Shown piece by piece: positions 3,983-61,580 of a stretch of DNA of 64,000 nucleotides; the stretch's first letter is position 1; each line of letters starts with the position of its first letter. Location: the NCBI GenBank assembly GCA_965231055.1, contig OZ246411.1:409875-473874 (forward strand), given 5' to 3'. The DNA is from an uncultured Candidatus Saccharibacteria bacterium (GTDB lineage Bacteria > Patescibacteriota > CALEFQ01 > G965231055). Made by a program: the position numbers and the translations under genes. The notes beneath the pieces were generated by a model. That model ran no database searches. It was not told where the DNA came from and saw only the letters and a program-made list of their open reading frames with translations.

Positions 3983-5044
3983 ATGGGATTTTTTAGTGAA
4001 AAAACCAGTTTAGGGATCGATATAGGTACCGCAAATATCAAAATAGTGGAACTTGTTGGTTCTCAAGGTAGGGCAGAGCTGTTAACTTACGGCGCTATTG
4101 ATATAAAAGCAGATATCCTAAGAAGCGATGACCAAGGTGCCAATGAAAAGATAGCAGAGTCTTTGAAAGATCTTTTGTCCAAATCAAAAGTAAAATCTAA
4201 ATACGCGATCTCTGCATTGCCAGGTTTTTCTGTTTTTAACTCTGTTATTAAGCTTCCAGAAATGAATGAGTCTGAGATAGGATCAGCGGTGAAGTGGGAG
4301 GCTAGAAGATATGTTCCATTTCCAATAGAAAACATGGTTTTGGACTGGAAGCAGTTAAAGGATGATAAAGCGGGAGTTTTCAAGCCGGAGAACCTTGGTG
4401 GCCCGAAAAAGGAAATTCAAATATTGCTTACTGCTGCGCCTAAGAATTTGGTAAACAAATACCTCGAAATTTTTTCAATGGCTGGCTTGAAATTGAGCGC
4501 ACTTGAAACGGAGTCGTTTGCCTTGATGAGATCTCTGGTTGGAAACGATAAGTCAACAATCGCTGTCGTAAATATAGGTTCCACGGCCACTGATATAAGT
4601 GTTATCAGTAATGGTCTTCCGGTGTTAAATAGAAGTTTTGATATTGGAGGGAAGGCTATAACAAATTCTATAGCAAGTAGCCTGAACGTTAGTTTGGATA
4701 GGGCGGAGCAGTTTAAAAGAGATCTGAGCTCATCTAGTAAGATGGGTGACGAAGTTCCTGATGTTATAAAACCTATAGTTCAGGGCATTACAAATGAAAT
4801 AAAAAATACATTATCACTTTACAATGGAAGTGGTGGTAAAAATATAGAAAAAATCATTTTGACTGGTGGATCTTCCAAACTTGTGACACTACCAAGGTAT
4901 CTAAAAGACTCCTTGGGCGTAGAAGTGTTCTTAGGAAATCCTTGGGCTAGAATCAAATATCCAAAAGAAATAGATCAAGAGTTAAAAAATATATCACCAA
5001 TGTTTTCCGTGTGCGCAGGTTTAGCGTTAAGAGATATATCATAA
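3983..5044 (+). CDS. pilM: type IV pilus assembly protein PilM (actin-like ATPase fold)
   Basis: N-terminal GIDIGTANIKIVEL motif typical of PilM/FtsA-like; first gene of the pilMNO block. Confidence 0.85.
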   Translation: MGFFSEKTSLGIDIGTANIKIVELVGSQGRAELLTYGAIDIKADILRSDDQGANEKIAESLKDLLSKSKVKSKYAISALPGFSVFNSVIKLPEMNESEIGSAVKWEARRYVPFPIENMVLDWKQLKDDKAGVFKPENLGGPKKEIQILLTAAPKNLVNKYLEIFSMAGLKLSALETESFALMRSLVGNDKSTIAVVNIGSTATDISVISNGLPVLNRSFDIGGKAITNSIASSLNVSLDRAEQFKRDLSSSSKMGDEVPDVIKPIVQGITNEIKNTLSLYNGSGGKNIEKIILTGGSSKLVTLPRYLKDSLGVEVFLGNPWARIKYPKEIDQELKNISPMFSVCAGLALRDIS

Positions 5045-8569: not shown

Positions 8570-9643
8570 ATGGCAAATAACGCACAAGCAAAACTAGAAA
8601 AACTAATGTCATTTGTGGCGGAGCAGGGTGGATCGGATCTTCATCTTGATCCAGGGAAGCCTCCTATTATCAGAGTTGATAGAAAACTGATTGAAGTTTC
8701 TGGGGAGAGTGTTATGTCTTCTGAGGATACTCTTGAAGCCGCTAAGTTTTTACTCGGAGATGAGAGATATAAAATTTTTGAAAAAAATAGAGAGTTTGAT
8801 TTTTCATACGCATATGGTGAAAAAGCAAGATTTAGAATAAATACTTATTACAAAATGGGATCGGTCGCAATAGCTATGCGTCTTATTCCCAGAGCCATTA
8901 GAACTATTGAGGAGCTTGGGCTTCCTTCGGTTATAAAGCAATTCGCAAAAGCAGCTCAGGGGCTTGTTATTGTTGTTGGTCCTTCTGGTCATGGAAAATC
9001 TACTACGCTAGCCTCACTCATTGATATTATAAATCATGAGAGGGCTGATCATATAATCACTATCGAGGATCCTATCGAATACATATTTACTCCAGACAAA
9101 AGCTTGATAGCTCAAAGAGAAGTGAATCATGATACCAATTCTTTTTCCAATGCCTTGAAATCGGTTCTTAGAGAAGATGCGAACGTAGTCATGGTGGGTG
9201 AAATGAGAGATCTTGAAACTATTTCTACCACAATTACTGTTGCAGAAACTGGTCATTTGGTCTTTGCTACTTTGCACACAAATGATGCTGCGCAGACTAT
9301 AGATAGAATGATAGATGTGTTTCCTCCATATCAGCAAAATCAAGTCCGGTCTCAGCTTGCAAATATCATCACTGGAGTGGTCTCTCAAAGACTCTTGCCG
9401 AAACTGGGTGGCGGTAGAATGGTAGTTACTGAAATTATGTTTGCAACCCCTGCGATAAGAAACCTAATCAGAGAGGGCAAGACTTACCAAATAAACAGTG
9501 TGATACAGACTAGCGCGGAAGAGGGGATGATCTCTATGGACAAGTCGCTTTCGGAACTCGTGAGAGCAGAAAAAATTTCTATGGATAGTGCTTTGATGTA
9601 TGCAATGAATAAAGATAGTGTGCTCTCTATGTTGAAATCGTAA
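8570..9643 (+). CDS. pilT: twitching motility ATPase PilT
   Basis: N-terminal DLHL..GKPP motif, Walker A GPSGHGKSTT, PilT-type AQREV region. Confidence 0.9.
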   Translation: MANNAQAKLEKLMSFVAEQGGSDLHLDPGKPPIIRVDRKLIEVSGESVMSSEDTLEAAKFLLGDERYKIFEKNREFDFSYAYGEKARFRINTYYKMGSVAIAMRLIPRAIRTIEELGLPSVIKQFAKAAQGLVIVVGPSGHGKSTTLASLIDIINHERADHIITIEDPIEYIFTPDKSLIAQREVNHDTNSFSNALKSVLREDANVVMVGEMRDLETISTTITVAETGHLVFATLHTNDAAQTIDRMIDVFPPYQQNQVRSQLANIITGVVSQRLLPKLGGGRMVVTEIMFATPAIRNLIREGKTYQINSVIQTSAEEGMISMDKSLSELVRAEKISMDSALMYAMNKDSVLSMLKS

Positions 9644-33319: not shown

Positions 33320-33391
33320 TTGTTCGGCTTAAATTTTCGTGCTTTCAAAAAAATCATATTTGTTTTATAATATGAGCAAGGAAAATAGATT

Positions 33392-33769
33392 ATGAAAACA
33401 CAAAAAGATCGTTTTTCGCAATTGTTCTTAGCCTTTTTTATTATAGGGCTATTTGGACTAATTGCGCTGTTTTTTGTTTTTGATCCGGAGAGTGGTGTAT
33501 TCTGGCAGTATCTGGTTGTGTATGCCTTGCTTTCATTTGTTGTATTTACTGGTTTTACTTTTTTCGGACACAAAATTCGGCTTATCCGGTCTAGAACCGG
33601 AGCAAACTATGCCAACAAAAAAGACTCACTGAGGCAAGGTTTGTTTTTCTCAATATTTACGGTAGCCATGCTGGCGATGCAGGCCTATGGAGTTTTGTCC
33701 TGGTGGATTGCATTGATTCTCGTCGCAGTTATAGTGGTCGCTGAACTTTATTTTATAAGTAGAAGATAG
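33392..33769 (+). CDS. membrane protein (4 TM), hypothetical
   Basis: 125-aa ORF with four hydrophobic helices; -10-like TTTTATAAT upstream. Confidence 0.6.
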   Translation: MKTQKDRFSQLFLAFFIIGLFGLIALFFVFDPESGVFWQYLVVYALLSFVVFTGFTFFGHKIRLIRSRTGANYANKKDSLRQGLFFSIFTVAMLAMQAYGVLSWWIALILVAVIVVAELYFISRR

Positions 33770-33800
33770 CTTGTATTAAATAATTTTTTATAAATATTTT

Positions 33801-34820
33801 ATGAAAGATCAAATATCACAAATAAAAATAGAAGCCGAGAAGGACATAAGCGATGCCAAAGATTTGGACATGCTAGAAAAAGCAAGTCTCACGTATTTGG
33901 GAAGAAAAGGGAAGTTGCCCTTGCTTCTTAGGGGCATCAAGGATCTTTCTCCCGAAGAAAAGAGAGAAATAGGACCCCTTGGAAACGGAGTGAGAAAAGA
34001 AATCGAGGAACTCATTGAACAAAAGAAAAACGAGATAAAGAAAGCCTCTTTTGAGGGCGTGGGTGAAAAAGAGAAAATTGATATCACGGAGCCGGGGGAA
34101 AAAATTCTTCACGGGAGCATTCATCCTATCACGCAAGTGATGTGGGAAATTCAGGATATATTCAAGTCAATGGGATTTGAAGTAGTAGCTACTCCAGAAG
34201 TTGATAGTGAGTACAACAATTTTGAAGCATTGAACGTCCCCGAGGATCATCCAGCTAGAACTATGTGGGATACTTTTTATCTTGAAAACGGTTTGATTCC
34301 TAGAGTTCACACTAGCACTTTTCAAGGAAGAATTATGAAAGAAAAACAACCACCAATAAGAGCGATAAATATAGGCAGATGTTTCAGAAATGAAAGAACA
34401 GATGCTAGACATGGTCATACTTTTTATCAAGTTGATGGTTTTGTTGTTGATGAAAATATTTCTGTTTCAAATCTTATGGCAACTTTGTCTGAATTTTTCA
34501 GAAGACTTTTCAGGAAAGATGTAAAAGTTAGATTTAGACCTGGATATTTTCCTTTCGTTGAACCGGGGCTTGAAGTAGAGGCAGAATGTGTTTTGTGTGG
34601 TGGAAAAGGTTGTAGCGTATGCCATGGCACGGGATGGCTTGAAATGATGGGCTGTGGAATGGTACATAGAAATGTTTTGACCAAAGGCGGAATAGATCCT
34701 GATAAATACAGCGGATTTGCTTTTGGGGGAGGCATAGACAGGATAGTGATGCTTCGCAGTGACGTAAATGATATCAGATATTTTCATGAAGGCGATTTGC
34801 GTTTCTTGAAGCAATTCTAA
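33801..34820 (+). CDS. pheS: phenylalanine--tRNA ligase alpha subunit
   Basis: class II aaRS motifs (FRPGYFPFVEPG, GFAFGGGIDRIVM). Confidence 0.95.
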   Translation: MKDQISQIKIEAEKDISDAKDLDMLEKASLTYLGRKGKLPLLLRGIKDLSPEEKREIGPLGNGVRKEIEELIEQKKNEIKKASFEGVGEKEKIDITEPGEKILHGSIHPITQVMWEIQDIFKSMGFEVVATPEVDSEYNNFEALNVPEDHPARTMWDTFYLENGLIPRVHTSTFQGRIMKEKQPPIRAINIGRCFRNERTDARHGHTFYQVDGFVVDENISVSNLMATLSEFFRRLFRKDVKVRFRPGYFPFVEPGLEVEAECVLCGGKGCSVCHGTGWLEMMGCGMVHRNVLTKGGIDPDKYSGFAFGGGIDRIVMLRSDVNDIRYFHEGDLRFLKQF

Positions 34821-34855: not shown

Positions 34856-37267
34856 ATGAAGCTAATAAAATCCTGGTTAAAAGAATATATTCCTACTTTA
34901 GATCTTGAAACCAAAGAGCTTGTAAATTTGATTACCAAGCACATAGTTGAGGTGGAAGGAGTAGAGAGTTCTTCCGATATAAAAAATGTTGTTGTAGGTG
35001 AGGTCAAGGAAGTCTCCAAGCATCCCGGAGCCGATAAGCTGAGTCTATGCGTTGTGGATACTGGAGATGCTAGTTTTCGCAAGATTGTTTGTGGAGCTCC
35101 AAATGTAGCAAAAGGCCAAAAAGTTGTAGTGGCATTGCCAGGTTCAGTACTACCAGGGGGATTTGAAATAAAAGAGAGGGAAGTGAGAGGTATTACTTCT
35201 TTGGGAATGATATGCGCTGAAGATGAGCTAGGACTTGGTGACAATCACGATGGCATAATGGTTTTACCACTAGATGCCAAAGTTGGAGAAAGTGCTTTCA
35301 AATATCTTGGAAAAGGTTCGGGAGAAGAAGTGATAGAGATAGAAAATAAATCACTCACAAATCGCCCCGATCTCTTTGGGCATCTTGGTATGGCGAGAGA
35401 GATTGCGACTATCTCGGGATTGGAATTTGTTTCAAAAGATTTTGAAATGCCAAAGTTAAGTAGTGATCTAAATATTGATGTAAAAGTTTCAAGTGAAAAG
35501 TGCAATAGATATATGGCCCTAGCTATGGATGTAAAAGTTGGTCCTTCCCCTGATTGGTTAAAGGCAAAAATGGAAGCTCTGGGACTTCGTTCTATAAACA
35601 ATGTAGTTGATATTACAAATTATGTAATGTTTGATTCAGCTCAGCCTCTGCATGCTTTTGATTTGGATAAGCTTGCAAAAAAAGGCGACGATGTTTTGAT
35701 AGAAGTGAGAGAAGCCAAAGAGGGGGAGAGTATGCTAGCGATAGACGGAAAAACTTATAATCTGGGTAGTGATAATTTGGTAATAGCAGATGCAGAGGCG
35801 CCAGTGGCACTAGCCGGTATTATGGGCGGGAAAAATACAGAAGTGGGAGAAGATACAAAGAGGATAGTTTTGGAAATAGCTTCTTTTGATGGATCAAGCA
35901 CTAGAAATACCTCTATGCATTTGGGACTCGTTAGCGAATCTTCAGTGAGGTATGCGAGAAATCTGAGCCCATGGGCTGTGAACCTAGGGGTCGCAAGAGC
36001 GGTAAAGCTTTTGGTGGAATTGGCTAGCGCAAAAATCATAGGAGGTTCAAAGGAATATTATCCTAAGCCAGTATCAAATAAGCAAATAACTTTTTCTATA
36101 GCCTCTGCCAATAAATTTATAGGTCAGGACATAGGGATAGAAAAAATCAAATCAATTCTTACCTCGCTTGGTTTGGAAGTTTTGGAAAATGGAGAGAATA
36201 TTTCAGTCAATATTCCCGCGATACGAAGCGATCTAAATATCCCCGAAGATATTTATGAAGAGATTGCTAGAATTTTTGGATACGAAACTATAAATAGAAA
36301 ATATATTTCGGGAGAGCTCGTCCCTCCAAATGAAAATCTTTCATTGTACTGGGATAGGGTAGCCAAAACTTTATTGGAAGGTTTGGGTTTTAGTGAGGTT
36401 TACAATTATTCTTTTACAAGCGGAAAGTTGGTTGAGTCTTTGGGTATGGACACGAAAGATTTGCTCAAAGTAAAAAACGCCATAAGTCCTGAAAATGAGT
36501 ATATGCGCATGTCATTGATTCCAAACATGCTAACCGCAATTTCCAAAAACCTTAGGTGTTTTGATGAGTTTTCGCTTTTTGAAATGGGTAAGGTTTACTA
36601 CAAGACTGCTAAACACGAGGTAAACGATGGATTGCCCATCAATGAAAAAACTATGCTTCTGGGCGTGGTAGTTCGAAGTGAAACAGAAAAACAGGATTCG
36701 CTCTATAAATATGTAAAGGGGATCGTTGCTACTTTGACCAAGAAATTTGGAATTTCTTTGGAAAATATAAAATTCAAAAGATTGGATATAGAAAGTGCAA
36801 CTTTTCATCCAGGAAAAACCGCAATCATAGAGGCATTTGGAAAAGAGTTGGGATATGTAGGAGAGATTCATCCGGCGGTACTTGATACACTTAAAATAAA
36901 TTCAAAAGTTGGATTTTTTGATTTGAATTTTGAAAACTTGATGCTGGTTGCGAATGTGGTAAAAGATTATGATCCTATTTCAGAGCATCCATCAATCGAA
37001 AGAGATTTGGCTTTTGTGGTTGCCAAAGACATAGACTCAGAAGATGTCGCATGGGCTATCGAAGAGGTTGCAGGGGACGAAGCTCACGATGTAGAGCATT
37101 TTGATACATATGAAGGCAAAGGAATACCTGAAGGCAAAAAGAGTCTTGCATTTAGAGTTGTGTATCAGGATCCCAAACGAACTTTGAAAGAAGAGGAAGT
37201 TAACGAGATACACAGTAAAGTTGTAGAAATGCTTAAAACAAAATTCAAAGCGGAAATCCGCAATTAA
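34856..37267 (+). CDS. pheT: phenylalanine--tRNA ligase beta subunit
   Basis: 803 aa, tRNA-binding OB N-domain, B3/B4, B5 and FDX-ACB domains in order; follows pheS. Confidence 0.95.
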   Translation: MKLIKSWLKEYIPTLDLETKELVNLITKHIVEVEGVESSSDIKNVVVGEVKEVSKHPGADKLSLCVVDTGDASFRKIVCGAPNVAKGQKVVVALPGSVLPGGFEIKEREVRGITSLGMICAEDELGLGDNHDGIMVLPLDAKVGESAFKYLGKGSGEEVIEIENKSLTNRPDLFGHLGMAREIATISGLEFVSKDFEMPKLSSDLNIDVKVSSEKCNRYMALAMDVKVGPSPDWLKAKMEALGLRSINNVVDITNYVMFDSAQPLHAFDLDKLAKKGDDVLIEVREAKEGESMLAIDGKTYNLGSDNLVIADAEAPVALAGIMGGKNTEVGEDTKRIVLEIASFDGSSTRNTSMHLGLVSESSVRYARNLSPWAVNLGVARAVKLLVELASAKIIGGSKEYYPKPVSNKQITFSIASANKFIGQDIGIEKIKSILTSLGLEVLENGENISVNIPAIRSDLNIPEDIYEEIARIFGYETINRKYISGELVPPNENLSLYWDRVAKTLLEGLGFSEVYNYSFTSGKLVESLGMDTKDLLKVKNAISPENEYMRMSLIPNMLTAISKNLRCFDEFSLFEMGKVYYKTAKHEVNDGLPINEKTMLLGVVVRSETEKQDSLYKYVKGIVATLTKKFGISLENIKFKRLDIESATFHPGKTAIIEAFGKELGYVGEIHPAVLDTLKINSKVGFFDLNFENLMLVANVVKDYDPISEHPSIERDLAFVVAKDIDSEDVAWAIEEVAGDEAHDVEHFDTYEGKGIPEGKKSLAFRVVYQDPKRTLKEEEVNEIHSKVVEMLKTKFKAEIRN

Positions 37268-46696: not shown

Positions 46697-48373
46697 ATGT
46701 CTTATAAGTATTTAAATTGCAAAAAGGTAGAATCTCTTTTGTCTAAAAAAGATATGGCGAAAGAGATTTTTGAAGAATTAGAGTTTGGTCCTAATTCAGC
46801 TTTTTCTATTTGTAGGGCAAAGAGCCAGAAGCCTGGTAGTTTTGTGCTTCAAAAATATCCTTCAAATAAGCTCAAGAAATGGCCAATTTTCTCAGGCTCT
46901 TATCGGGTGAGAGATCCTAGGTGTTCAGTTGCCGTTGCTTTTCCTTTTCAGGAGGAGGTGCTTTTGGAGGAGGCACTGAGGGCTGGGGCCGCGATTGCTG
47001 GACCCTGTGTTACTCCGGACTTGGGGCCCGAGATAGTGATATCCAATATATTGGCAAACCCAAATATTAGATATCTTATTGTTGCGGGAAAAGAAAGTGG
47101 GCATATGTCTGGAGACATACTTAGTAATGCAAATTGGAACGGAGTAGATCCTAAAACAAAAAGAGTAATTGGAACTAAGTCAAAATCAAATCCTTATTTT
47201 CAAAACTTATCCCAAGAAGATATAGAAAAGTTTAAAAAAAGAGTAAAAGTGATAAATTTCATTTCTCCTTATTTTCCGGAAGACAGAAAAAACGTGGCTA
47301 ATACTATTAAGCTAATAGTAAGATGCTGTTTGCAAGAACCTTGGAATAAAATAAGATTCAAAAATAAAATGACGGGTCAGGATATTGTTCTATTTGATCC
47401 TGGATCGGAGGGTTTAAGTCCACATATTACGGCACTAAAAAAACCAGAAACAACGATAGTAGCTGAGGGTATTAGTAGAAATGGATCTAGTATTCACGCT
47501 AGGTATTTGGCAGATGCATACGAACCTTTTAAATCTTATTTATTGGTTCATGGCTCATGGGGTAAGGAAGAATCTGGCAGATTTGCTCTAGATATGCCGG
47601 GTTTTCAAATTACCATAGAAGATACTACTAAAAACTTAGTACCTCGTCGTTGGTATCCGGAGGGTTGGCTTACAAAGTTTAACGAAGTTGTGAATTACGT
47701 AGAGAGCTATGCTACGTGGGTTTATTTATTCCCTCTATCTATTATTAGAAAATCTTTGGGAAAATATCCAATGCCATATATTCCAGACATGAAGCTGATA
47801 GATTATTCTTACGGTACCAGGATAACGACATACTGGATAGATCTAGCATCTAGAAAAGAGAAGCGTCGAATAATAAAAAATGTTGAAGAAATTCACAAAA
47901 AATATTGTTCAGGTAAAAAAGTGCCTTCATTTGATGAAATAATAAAATTTCACGAAAAACTTTCCAAGGTGCAAAAAAAATCATTCAACCAGCTCAGGAG
48001 TGTTGCTAGGCAAGTTGCTTTATGTGTAAAAGAGGGAATAGGCGCTTCTTATAGAATTTATATGAGTTTGCATATTCCTATTTTTGATATGAATGATGAT
48101 CCCAGGGAAGCGCATCAGCCTTGTTTTATTGCTTACGCTTTTTATCCGAGACTCATCGAAAATAAATGGCAGCTAGACGCTGTTATGTATATGAGGGCCA
48201 ATGATGTTAGAGCTATGCCTGCAAATGCATATGGTGGAATAAAGCTCATGCACTTTGTGGCACATTGGGCTTCTAAGATTGCAAAAAAGAGGATTTTACC
48301 TGGAGTTTATACTCATCAAACAGGATGTGCTAATTATTGCGATTATATGTTGCCTAAGAATTTCAAGAAATAA
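46697..48373 (+). CDS. thymidylate synthase (ThyA/dCMP-hydroxymethylase superfamily)-like protein with a roughly 400-aa N-terminal extension
   Basis: C-terminal QPCFIAYAFYP ... LDAVMYMRANDVRAMPANAYGGIKLM aligns with the ThyA PCH ... LSCQLYQRSxDVFLGLPFNIASYALL core (Cys, Arg, Asp, Asn conserved); the N-terminal 400 aa is unrecognised. Confidence 0.6.
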   Translation: MSYKYLNCKKVESLLSKKDMAKEIFEELEFGPNSAFSICRAKSQKPGSFVLQKYPSNKLKKWPIFSGSYRVRDPRCSVAVAFPFQEEVLLEEALRAGAAIAGPCVTPDLGPEIVISNILANPNIRYLIVAGKESGHMSGDILSNANWNGVDPKTKRVIGTKSKSNPYFQNLSQEDIEKFKKRVKVINFISPYFPEDRKNVANTIKLIVRCCLQEPWNKIRFKNKMTGQDIVLFDPGSEGLSPHITALKKPETTIVAEGISRNGSSIHARYLADAYEPFKSYLLVHGSWGKEESGRFALDMPGFQITIEDTTKNLVPRRWYPEGWLTKFNEVVNYVESYATWVYLFPLSIIRKSLGKYPMPYIPDMKLIDYSYGTRITTYWIDLASRKEKRRIIKNVEEIHKKYCSGKKVPSFDEIIKFHEKLSKVQKKSFNQLRSVARQVALCVKEGIGASYRIYMSLHIPIFDMNDDPREAHQPCFIAYAFYPRLIENKWQLDAVMYMRANDVRAMPANAYGGIKLMHFVAHWASKIAKKRILPGVYTHQTGCANYCDYMLPKNFKK

Positions 48374-59515: not shown

Positions 59516-61249
59516 TTATTTTTTTTCTTTTATTTCTTCTTTTATTTTGTGAATAAAGGTTTCGAGTTTTAAAACCTCCTGCTCTTCTTTTTCTCTGGAG
59601 TTTATCGTGATTGTATTTTCCTGTTTTTCTTTTTCTCCAACGATTAGAATGTATGGAGTTTTTTGCATTTTGGCTTTTCGGATTCTTTTTCCTAAAGACT
59701 CACTTTCATTGCTAATTTCTACTCTGATTTCATTATCTAGCAGCTCTGTGTAAATCTTTTTAGCGTAATCATCGAATTTTTCTGAAACAGGTAGGATAGC
59801 TACTTGAACAGGGGAGAGCCAGACTGGAAAGGCACCTGCAAAATGCTCTATGAGTAGGGCTAAAAATCTTTCGTAGGATCCTAGTATTGCTCGATGAACC
59901 ATGACTGGTGCAATTCTTTCTCCTTTTTCATTGATGTACTCAAGGCCAAACCTTTTTGGTGTTGCAAAATCAATTTGAACTGTTGGGATTTGAATCTCTC
60001 TTCCGGTAGCATCGCGAAACATAAAATCCAATTTTGGACCGTATAGCGCAGCTTCGCCTTCACATCTTTTTGCGTCCAGTTTCATTTCATTTGAGATATC
60101 TTCAAGAATTTTTTCACATTCATCCCAATCCTTGGTTTCTCCTATATATTTTTCTGGATGATCATAGTCACGAACTGAGAGTGAAACCCAATGATTTCCC
60201 CAAAGACCAATGGCAGAATAAAAATCTTTTATAATATTGACCATGTTTCTTATTTCGTCCTTGACTTGCTCAACTGTGCAAAAAGAATGCCCGTCTTCTA
60301 TTGTTATGGCGTAAACTCGTGATAATCCTCCGACTTCGCCAGTTTTTTCGGCTCGATATTGTTTATCTGATTCCATGTATCTTATTGGTAGATCTTTGTA
60401 TGATCTCATTTGTGAGGCATAGATCTGTGTGTGGTGGGGGCATTGAACTGGTTTTAGTACAAAGTCGTGTTTTTTTTCTGATGTGACATGGAAGAGCTCA
60501 TCGCCAAATTTTTTGGCATGTCCCGAAGTTTCAAAAAGCTCCTCTTTTGCCAATGATGGCGCGGAAACTTTTTGAAAACCGTATTTTCTGCAAACACCTT
60601 CAATGTGTTTTTGTAGCTCTTCTTTGATTACTGTTCCTTTTGGAGTGTAAAGTGGTAGACCTGGTCCAACTAAATCTGAAAAACAAAATAAATCAAGGTC
60701 TTTACCAATTTTTCGATGATCTCTTTTTGATGCTTCTTCGATCATTTTCAGATAAGTAGCGAGCTCTTTTTTATTTTCAAAAGCCGTGCCGTAAATGCGC
60801 TGGAGCATCTTGTTTTTTTCGTCTCCTCTCCAGTATGCACCTGCTATTGAAAGCAATTTGAAACTTTTTATTTCCCTTGTTGAGTCTATGTGTGGTCCCG
60901 TGCATAGATCAACGAAATTTCCAGTTTTATAGATGCTTACTTTATCGTCTTTTATCTCTTCTAGCAGCTCAACCTTGTATGGCTGTTTAGCTTTTTTGAA
61001 AAGTTCAATAGCTTCTTTTCTGTCCATTTGAGCTTGCTCAAAGGGCAAATTCTTTTTTATGATTTCCTGCATTTTTTCTTCAATGATTTTTAGATCTTCG
61101 GGAATCAGGGTTCTTGGCAAATCAAAATCATAGTAAAATCCCTCATCGGTTGATGGGCCTATTGCAAATTTGGCATCTGGAAACATTTCAAACACGGCTG
61201 ATGCAAGCACGTGAGATGTCGAATGTCTTAGGGTTGATAGATTTTTCAT
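59516..61249 (-). CDS. thrS: threonine--tRNA ligase (catalytic plus anticodon-binding domains; short N-terminus)
   Basis: second additional domain (TLRHSTSHVLA), class II motifs (HRAILGSYERF), C-terminal anticodon-binding domain. Confidence 0.9.
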   Translation of the reverse strand: MKNLSTLRHSTSHVLASAVFEMFPDAKFAIGPSTDEGFYYDFDLPRTLIPEDLKIIEEKMQEIIKKNLPFEQAQMDRKEAIELFKKAKQPYKVELLEEIKDDKVSIYKTGNFVDLCTGPHIDSTREIKSFKLLSIAGAYWRGDEKNKMLQRIYGTAFENKKELATYLKMIEEASKRDHRKIGKDLDLFCFSDLVGPGLPLYTPKGTVIKEELQKHIEGVCRKYGFQKVSAPSLAKEELFETSGHAKKFGDELFHVTSEKKHDFVLKPVQCPHHTQIYASQMRSYKDLPIRYMESDKQYRAEKTGEVGGLSRVYAITIEDGHSFCTVEQVKDEIRNMVNIIKDFYSAIGLWGNHWVSLSVRDYDHPEKYIGETKDWDECEKILEDISNEMKLDAKRCEGEAALYGPKLDFMFRDATGREIQIPTVQIDFATPKRFGLEYINEKGERIAPVMVHRAILGSYERFLALLIEHFAGAFPVWLSPVQVAILPVSEKFDDYAKKIYTELLDNEIRVEISNESESLGKRIRKAKMQKTPYILIVGEKEKQENTITINSREKEEQEVLKLETFIHKIKEEIKEKK

Positions 61250-61580
61250 GGTTTAAATTAAGTTATAAGTATTCGCGAATAAATAAAAAATTCTCGCTCC
61301 AAAGTTAAACTTTTTTAACATTGGAACGAGAATTCTATCTCGCGGTTCCATCCAATTTCTCACCACTCTGAGATTTAGTGATAAGCTTCTTTATTTATTG
61401 CAATTGCTCCGCGGGTGGTATGAAATAGGGGATTGTCGCAAAAGCTTTCAGTCTCGGCTCTTGCTCCCTTTGACAATTCATCCTTGTTTCACTTGTCCCA
61501 CTGACACGTTGTTAGCTTAGCATAATGCTAAAAGTTTTTCAATACAGTATTTGGTAATTAAAAAAGAAATAGAAGAATAC
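61250..61580 (-). promoter_or_regulatory. T-box-like riboswitch leader of thrS (T-box motif plus terminator/antiterminator)
   Basis: on the minus strand: AAATTGGATGGAACCGCGAG (plus 61339-61357) matches the T-box consensus AAUUAGGGUGGNACCGCGG with a UGGA bulge; mutually exclusive antiterminator (GGAAC/GTTCC + CGAGA/TCTCG) and a 19-bp terminator hairpin (plus 61289-61334) followed by UUUUUUAUUU about 30 nt before the thrS ATG; candidate Thr specifier ACC in cauACCAcc. Confidence 0.65.

Follow-up and report, generated by a model that had tools for sequence, protein, structure and literature searches.

A predicted threonine-specific T-box riboswitch in the thrS leader of a Candidatus Saccharibacteria bacterium

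What is encoded in the 331 nt that separate dnaE from thrS in an uncultured Candidatus Saccharibacteria bacterium? We addressed this question in a window of 64,000 nucleotides (64 kb) of contig OZ246411.1, whose numbering is used throughout and in which the spacer lies on the minus strand between the dnaE stop codon (61583-61581) and the thrS ATG (61249). An initial annotation of this DNA had proposed that a T-box here senses tRNA-Thr and attenuates transcription of thrS. That proposal is upheld by a match to the T-box family RF00230, homologous leaders with compensatory changes, mutually exclusive folds, and tRNA-Thr(GGU) genes with U73 on related contigs. It is very probable, in our estimation, that the leader, about 230 nt long (61507-61278, minus strand), is a Thr-specific, transcription-attenuating (class I) T-box riboswitch of a thrS gene of the Candidate Phyla Radiation (CPR)/Patescibacteria. 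T-boxes are textbook regulators of Gram-positive bacteria, and the element belongs to this well-understood family.

When the leader was scanned against Rfam at a permissive threshold, RF00230 aligned from model positions 1-219 at 61319-61513 (minus strand) with a score of 40.6 bits and an E value of 1.3e-7, which pertains to a 551-nt search and rescales to ~1.5e-5 over the whole window. This was the single significant family in the leader, the runner-up reaching an E value of 0.076. In the alignment, ACC-A occupies the specifier positions, and four further features are retained, namely the AG bulge, distal loop, T-box sequence and antiterminator; the positions of Stem II and of the IIA/B pseudoknot are deleted. 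The folding z of the leader is -4.9. A covariance model of the T-box core (R1), which counts the window sequence itself among its 40 seed sequences, found its sole site in the 64 kb in this leader at 50.4 bits, with the next match at an E value of 0.28.

The 5′ part of the element is Stem I, the decoding domain (61406-61507, minus strand), which we delimited by RF00230 model positions 7-103, the minimum free energy (MFE) fold and covariation. It forms a long irregular hairpin of -28.2 kcal/mol when folded alone, with a lower helix GUGGG/CCCGC. On the 3′ side of an internal loop above this helix lies the specifier ACCA (61416-61419), made up of the Thr codon ACC (61419-61417) and a 3′ purine, A (61416). 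The codon and its purine had been picked out earlier as cauACCAcc, and they occupy the specifier positions of the family. For comparison, we assembled 160 thrS loci from genome and metagenome collections, together with the window's own locus (L081) and five further loci. In a structure-blind Stem I alignment (A1) of 18 thrS leaders, comprising the window, five long-architecture CPR leaders and twelve Firmicutes leaders, the specifier columns A-C-Y-A are invariant, as is GNCUGANA in the distal loop. When helices taken from a Firmicutes reference were projected onto this alignment, 81% of the cells were paired, 19 of the 21 pairs showed compensatory changes, and the covariation score was 0.636, compared with 0.25 in shuffles. 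RNAalifold on the plain MAFFT alignment had recovered the distal helix alone and was set aside in favor of this projection.

The distal part of Stem I (61438-61471, minus strand) carries the motifs expected to meet the tRNA elbow, as judged by comparison with Firmicutes thrS T-boxes and by covariation. The AG bulge, AAAGGGA(G), occupies 61471-61464; a distal helix of 8 bp follows (GCAAGAGC/GCUUUUGC), together with the distal loop CGAGACUGAAA (61456-61446). Firmicutes thrS T-boxes in our control loci show motifs of the same form, and all six of the distal helix pairs examined in the alignment covary. Along the 3′ strand, the distal helix and the specifier are 18 nt apart in the window and 18-19 nt apart in the controls, a spacing that fits simultaneous contacts with the anticodon and the elbow. 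The motifs, helix, spacing and covariation agree with a putative interdigitated T-loop platform for the tRNA elbow. We also observed that the two platform motifs change together: AGGGA occurs with GACUGA in the window, L025, L026, L058 and L157, whereas AGAGA occurs with GGCUGA in L049 and in all 25 Firmicutes-type loci. An A/G to G/A swap at two contacting positions of the interdigitated T-loops is one possible cause, shared ancestry another.

Stem I is followed by a 20-nt linker, AAUUGCAAUAAAUAAAGAAG (61386-61405, minus strand). It takes the position of Stem II with its IIA/B pseudoknot, a module described as optional (PMC7583486) that the window leader lacks; the corresponding model positions are deleted, and the fold shows no stable structure there. 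Next comes Stem III (61359-61385, minus strand), a hairpin of 9 bp (CUUAUCACU/AGUGGUGAG) with a 9-nt loop in the MFE folds. A hairpin had indeed been annotated here, although the UCUC/GAGA pairing given for it is a weaker alternative to the 9-bp helix of the MFE. Relatives have a hairpin of varying sequence at this position. Three nucleotides (AAA) separate the end of Stem III from the first antiterminator helix. Stem I, linker, Stem III and antiterminator together make up a minimal T-box architecture.

The T-box sequence and antiterminator (61320-61358, minus strand) are supported by the RF00230 alignment, the MFE fold computed without the terminator 3′ strand, covariation and R1. As the initial annotation had recognized, the consensus string with its UGGA bulge is present, as AAAUUGGAUGGAACCGCGAG at 61358-61339. 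The 7-nt bulge UGGAACC (61350-61344) is flanked by helix A1, in which AUUGGA (61356-61351) pairs with UCCAAU (61325-61320), and by helix A2, in which GCGAGA (61343-61338) pairs with UCUCGU (61331-61326). The UGGA of the bulge is complementary to the tRNA 3′ end UCCA. The antiterminator previously described exists, but its register (GGAAC/GUUCC plus CGAGA/UCUCG) is off, as it draws on bases of the bulge and counts one G twice; the register given here agrees both with the family and with the MFE fold lacking the terminator 3′ strand.

The competing structure is a predicted intrinsic terminator with its U-run (61278-61335, minus strand), seen in the MFE of the 3′ domain. Its 5′ strand (61335-61314) includes the 3′ strands of both A2 and A1, its 3′ strand spans 61309-61289, and the U-run UUUUUUAUUUAUU (61290-61278) follows the stem. 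A terminator and U-run ahead of the ATG had been annotated correctly, with the difference that the stem has about 22 pairs and not 19; the distance to the ATG is 31 nt. In the 3′ domain, the terminator is worth -35.7 kcal/mol and the antiterminator -19.9 kcal/mol, ~16 kcal/mol apart; folding without the terminator 3′ strand yields precisely the bulged antiterminator as the MFE. The arrangement is the classic one, in which the antiterminator would need the tRNA in order to compete.

Comparison with other thrS loci indicates that this core is conserved as a structure. In the first 161 loci, UGGNACC sites upstream of thrS are flanked by strands able to pair as A1 and A2 in 73 of 81 cases, as opposed to 42 of 525 elsewhere, and several of these 42 are T-boxes of other Firmicutes genes. 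A structure-aware search found A at the variable bulge base in all 72 leaders recovered. Across 40 leaders aligned with MAFFT, 91% of the antiterminator cells are paired, compensatory changes occur in all 12 pairs and UGGAACC is invariant. The covariation score of these leaders is 0.761, against a shuffle value of 0.27 and slid-register values no higher than 0.22; the slid registers are the fairer comparison, as related sequences are not phylogenetically independent and shuffle statistics overstate significance. Two simpler searches proved unsuitable. A strict search for TGGNACCNCG ahead of thrS overlooked the closest relatives, which have a different A2 helix, and was replaced by the structure-aware test; nhmmer with the window leader against the other leaders gave only four weak matches, because the primary sequence is too diverged.

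R1 located cores upstream of thrS, on its strand, at ~60 of 125 loci, made up of 41 of the 80 genome loci and 19 of the 45 further ones. About 20 of the positive genome loci belong to named CPR bacteria, including Moranbacteria, Portnoybacteria, Peregrinibacteria, Peribacteria, Parcubacteria and others. Within 10 kb of thrS in the CPR loci, R1 detected no T-box core at other genes. A T-box upstream of thrS is common across CPR lineages and not peculiar to the genome of the window.

The cognate tRNA was sought in the same data. Neither the window nor its 10-kb extension L081 contains a tRNA-Thr gene. All eight tRNA-Thr genes that we found lie on related contigs, and all have U73. Among them, tRNA-Thr(GGU) with U73 occurs on L086, whose ThrRS (threonyl-tRNA synthetase) is 65% identical to that of the window, and on L166, a different genome of the group, in both cases downstream of trmD and tRNA-Tyr. 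The anticodon GGU reads ACC, and U73-CCA pairs with UGGA. The variable position of the T-box is reported to match the tRNA discriminator (Grundy et al. 1994, as cited in PMC2494555). We also note that the order rnc, rpsP, KH protein, trmD, tRNA-Tyr, tRNA-Thr(GGU) is kept in L086 (1528-2024) and L166 (4707-4907), with an additional tRNA-Trp in the L086 cluster; the trmD–tRNA-Tyr–tRNA-Thr synteny offers a handle for locating tRNA-Thr in related genomes.

From the sequence homology, the structural elements, the covariation among homologues, the alternative folds and the matching tRNA features of related contigs, we infer tRNA binding, sensing of its charging and a transcriptional outcome. In the nascent leader, Stem I would capture tRNA-Thr(GGU), with the ACC specifier pairing with the anticodon and the distal AG-bulge/distal-loop platform stacking on the tRNA elbow. 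The free 3′ end of an uncharged tRNA, U73-C-C-A, would pair with the UGGA of the 7-nt bulge and stabilize the weaker antiterminator, in which A1 and A2 are stacked on Stem III; polymerase would then read through and ThrRS would be made. If the tRNA is charged, the amino acid would block this pairing, and the hairpin that is ~16 kcal/mol more stable would take the 3′ strands of A1 and A2, so that transcription would stop at the U-run, 31 nt before the ATG.

Several observations weigh against a functional T-box of this kind. At the base of Stem I, the consensus of the kink turn (K-turn) is missing: the 5′ strand reads GUCAGU where gAUGAa is expected, having UCA/AG in place of UGA, and the MFE there is an ordinary, near-regular helix, although the 3′ half, GGAGC, is present. 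The S-turn consensus AGUA/GAA is absent as well. Its GAA beside the specifier is replaced by CAU and its 5′ side reads AGUGA, and the MFE pairs these bases to leave a 4×4 internal loop, ACAA/ACCA. In the Stem I alignment, the window's own row forms 11 of the 21 family pairs, owing to one-column shifts, and the case for Stem I in the window consequently rests on its own fold and on the RF00230 alignment. The nearest ThrRS relatives (L162 and L163, 77% identity) have another leader architecture that lacks a long Stem I. A consensus scan gave no sigma-70 promoter in the leader. Finally, the leader's score is under half of the RF00230 gathering cutoff of 93 bits, an operational cutoff and not a structural feature. 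Of the Stem I features named in the initial annotation, then, the AG bulge and distal loop are in place and the K-turn consensus is not, a deficit that, in light of the controls, does not overturn the call.

The low score can be calibrated. At curated Rfam thresholds, the whole window yields three tRNAs and no T-box match. The thrS T-boxes of seven cultured Firmicutes (L033, L041, L047, L050, L063, L064 and L066) score 100-134 bits with RF00230, compared with 40.6 bits for the window; the thrS leader of a Clostridia metagenome-assembled genome scores 69.3 bits and five other CPR thrS leaders score 40-68 bits, so that all six CPR leaders scored, the window's included, fall under the cutoff. Because the cultured Firmicutes pass the cutoff while the CPR leaders reach 40-68 and the Clostridia leader 69.3 bits, the score of the window reflects a reduced, divergent form of the element as opposed to noise. 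The idea that the cutoff is too strict for thrS T-boxes in general, which arose after the L072 control, was discarded, as the cultured Firmicutes pass it. The initial annotation had staked its call on RF00230, and the result is divided: the match is full-length and significant, but it does not attain the gathering score.

The same observations could be taken to describe a decaying relic, a T-box descendant in a shrinking genome that no longer senses tRNA and persists as a leaky constitutive terminator or an inert spacer. The loss of the K-turn and S-turn consensus, the absent Stem II, the low RF00230 score and the lack of a called consensus promoter are all in keeping with decay, and several close relatives (L002, L008, L010 and L165) have lost the leader entirely. 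The parts needed for sensing and switching, however, are intact and in register: ACC-A, the platform with its 18-nt spacing, UGGAACC, and 6-bp A1 and A2 helices that the terminator overlaps exactly. Furthermore, a constitutive 22-bp terminator, if it could not be overridden, would be detrimental ahead of a gene that is essential and present in single copy, and glycine T-boxes naturally lack Stem II, in which case the K-turn has been argued to be dispensable, there being no Stem II to position (PMC7583486). We therefore consider a relic unlikely.

Even less likely is control at the level of translation or mRNA stability, either by a T-box of the actinobacterial type that sequesters the ribosome-binding site or by ThrRS binding its own leader as with E. 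coli thrS. Translational T-boxes do exist (PMC7583486), no obvious Shine-Dalgarno sequence precedes the ATG, and a simple terminator scan made no call on the leader hairpin, probably because a mismatch interrupts its A+U-rich upper stem. Against this, the hairpin (61335-61289) is followed by UUUUUUAUUU (61290-61281), which leaves the start region uncovered in the layout of a transcriptional T-box, and the structure is accounted for without an anticodon-arm mimic of the E. coli operator type. Chance resemblance of a plain intergenic region containing a dnaE terminator and A+U-rich hairpins is hardly credible: an A+T-rich genome (the window is 37% G+C) abounds in hairpins and U-runs and the score is below the curated threshold, but the match is full-length at E 1.3e-7 with its elements in canonical order, and the element recurs before thrS in dozens of loci with compensatory changes while occupying a single site in the 64 kb. 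Leader-peptide attenuation was ruled out, as the small ORFs (open reading frames) of the leader are not Thr-rich.

How transcription of the T-box leader begins may be indicated by a candidate weak promoter that we identified by eye directly upstream of Stem I (61514-61542, minus strand). It consists of TTGAAA (61542-61537), a 17-nt spacer and the extended -10-like sequence TGC-TAAGCT (61522-61514), that is, TTGAAA-17-TGCTAAGCT. From this sequence alone, transcription would be expected to begin close to the base of Stem I. Where the window has its weak candidate, relatives possess clear TTGAC..TATAAT boxes. Transcription may also arrive by read-through from dnaE.

The closest known counterparts of the element are the Firmicutes thrS T-boxes of the B. 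subtilis thrS/thrZ type, which share with it the regulated gene, an ACC/ACU-A specifier, the UGGA bulge, the AG bulge, the GNCUGANA distal loop, Stem III and a terminator overlapping the antiterminator. What sets these leaders apart from that of the window is a Stem II with its IIA/B pseudoknot, a K-turn of consensus form (GC-gAUGA...GAGC), an S-turn (AGUA/GAA) and the platform motifs AGAGA/GGCUGA in place of AGGGA/GACUGA. B. subtilis thrS itself is cited as an established T-box gene in PMC2494555. In its minimal layout, the window element resembles the glyQS T-boxes of Bacilli, which also combine a long platform-bearing Stem I with a short linker, Stem III and an antiterminator/terminator and are likewise without the Stem II domain (PMC7583486). 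The glyQS leaders differ in recognizing tRNA-Gly with GGC, where the window has ACC for tRNA-Thr, and in keeping the K-turn. The loss of Stem II from glyQS has been explained by the three G-C pairs of the Gly codon–anticodon duplex (PMC7583486), whereas the duplex predicted for the window has two G-C pairs and one A-U pair.

A different goal-sharing system is the E. coli thrS translational operator, which likewise achieves feedback control of ThrRS synthesis through the thrS leader. There, ThrRS binds anticodon-arm mimics beside the start codon, with no T-box sequence, tRNA sensing or terminator. The actinobacterial ileS translational T-boxes have a short or 'ultrashort' Stem I; they share family membership and the discriminator core with the window element. 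They rely on sequestration of the ribosome-binding site and depend on Stem II, in contrast to the long platform-bearing Stem I and the terminator of the window. They resemble the leaders of the window's nearest relatives, in which the codon is placed in a terminal loop and a platform is lacking (PMC7583486).

Most CPR thrS leaders, in fact, lack a long Stem I and the platform motifs and carry ACC plus a purine in a terminal loop. Leaders of this short-Stem-I kind occur at L001, L003, L005, L006, L009, L011, L017-L022, L029, L030, L039, L051, L069, L084, L088, L090, L091, L093, L103, L107, L110, L119 and L161-L164. The stretch concerned lies 60-230 nt upstream of the UGGAACC core. The terminal loop is often exactly 7 nt (CUACCAA, UUACCAG or CCACCAA, as in ACGG CUACCAA CCGU), and its stems are variable in sequence. 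The hairpin detector (stems of at least 4 bp) succeeds by chance in 37% of shuffles, and because of this high rate the argument for a terminal loop rests on the recurrence of the loops together with the variation of the stems. Some of these leaders have a K-turn-like UGA../..GAG at the base. Like the window leader, the CPR leaders L025 and L026 are, by eye, natural candidates for T-boxes lacking a K-turn.

The short-Stem-I leaders retain U-run terminators, in contrast to the actinobacterial T-boxes, which are known for an ultrashort Stem I and act on translation; transcriptional T-boxes have generally been held to need a long, platform-bearing Stem I (PMC7583486). In one subgroup, the terminator reuses the 3′ strands of the antiterminator, as is usual. 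In another (L018, L030, L003, L163, L001/L082, L005, L088, L020, L039 and L017), a longer hairpin of the MFE encloses the intact bulged antiterminator helix, and this hairpin's lower stem pairs the 5′ strand and loop of Stem III (CGCCCAGAAAUCAC in L039) with the strand before the U-run (GUGAUUUUUGGGCG). Compensatory changes in this lower stem are visible by eye among L039, L020 and L017. On these folds, the terminator of this subgroup would compete with Stem III and not with the antiterminator helices.

Some CPR leaders carry further sequence. In L006 (~9100-9340) and L099, an extra 200-250 nt starting GUCAUUCCCAACUUGAUUGGGAAUCCAGAUG lie between the T-box terminator and thrS; the L006 insert ends with inverted GGGAAUGAC and looks like a small inverted-repeat element within the leader. 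L026 contains a near-perfect hairpin of ~147 nt (4121-4267) that matches plant microRNA precursor models below threshold (52 versus 100 bits) and is probably an inverted repeat and not a microRNA.

The genes flanking the leader are clear from their Pfam domains. The ORF on its 5′ side is dnaE, encoding DNA polymerase III alpha. On its 3′ side, the regulated gene (59516-61249, minus strand) encodes a 577-aa protein with tRNA_SAD, the class II core (tRNA-synt_2b) and the anticodon-binding domain HGTP_anticodon, which identifies it as ThrRS and agrees with the earlier assignment to thrS. Pfam found no N-terminal TGS domain in this protein. Its close homologues are all 564-613 aa long, and the short form without TGS seems to be typical of the group. 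The closest homologues, at 69-77% identity, are named Candidatus Moranbacteria, Parcubacteria or Patescibacteria, and the best of them are Moranbacteria, which bears out the view that this is a reduced genome of the CPR type. In Moranbacteria GW2011_GWF1_36_4 (L165, 1-1387), whose thrS locus is without a T-box leader, the dnaE upstream of thrS holds an intein with a LAGLIDADG endonuclease domain, in a 1,601-aa product. Elsewhere in the window, a 558-aa protein (46697-48373, plus strand) matches the MtrA family (tetrahydromethanopterin S-methyltransferase subunit A) with an E value of 1e-32; such a domain is unexpected in a CPR bacterium.

A second aminoacyl-tRNA synthetase locus in the window, with pheS at 33801 and pheT at 34856, had been described as having no room for a T-box leader. 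We found no T-box upstream of pheST with R1 or with the permissive Rfam scan, and the 481-nt gap before pheS (33320-33800, plus strand) has no match to any RNA family at the permissive threshold. The absence of such a leader is thus confirmed, while the reason given for it hinges on accepting a 125-aa hydrophobic ORF at 33392-33769, which ends 31 nt before pheS.

What the element means for the T-box family depends first on where T-boxes have been recorded. The documented range comprises Firmicutes (>95% of cases), Actinobacteria, Chloroflexi, Deinococcus-Thermus and two deltaproteobacteria (PMC2494555), and among open-access papers and bioRxiv preprints we found no report of T-boxes in CPR/Patescibacteria. 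The T-box database TBDB was assembled from Rfam and similar sources (PMC7778990). Because all of the CPR leaders that we scored fall under the curated cutoff, pipelines and databases built on that cutoff probably miss CPR T-boxes. The CPR has been placed as sister to Chloroflexota within Terrabacteria (10.1101/2020.07.15.205187), which makes a T-box in CPR plausible by descent, and the distribution of T-boxes fits a CPR located inside Terrabacteria beside Chloroflexota. We tentatively suggest, as a reading somewhat short of probable, that the window element stands at the canonical-looking end of a large lineage of CPR thrS T-boxes, so far uncatalogued, which was inherited from a Terrabacteria ancestor shared with Chloroflexota and Firmicutes and then pared down. 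The K-turn, S-turn and Stem II would have been lost here, and in most relatives the entire platform, leaving the Thr codon in a terminal loop the size of an anticodon loop, with the intrinsic terminator kept.

Paring-down of this kind has been thought unlikely for transcriptional T-boxes. The K-turn might be dispensable where there is no Stem II to position, and whether a T-box without a K-turn can function is an open question (PMC7583486); a Thr T-box lacking both Stem II and the consensus K-turn is a natural candidate bearing on it. If our broader suggestion is true, CPR bacteria would supply natural minimal T-boxes with which to test the modules needed for co-transcriptional tRNA sensing. 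For the organisms themselves, which have few known regulators and no amino acid synthesis, a T-box at thrS would mean direct monitoring of tRNA charging by a protein-free RNA.

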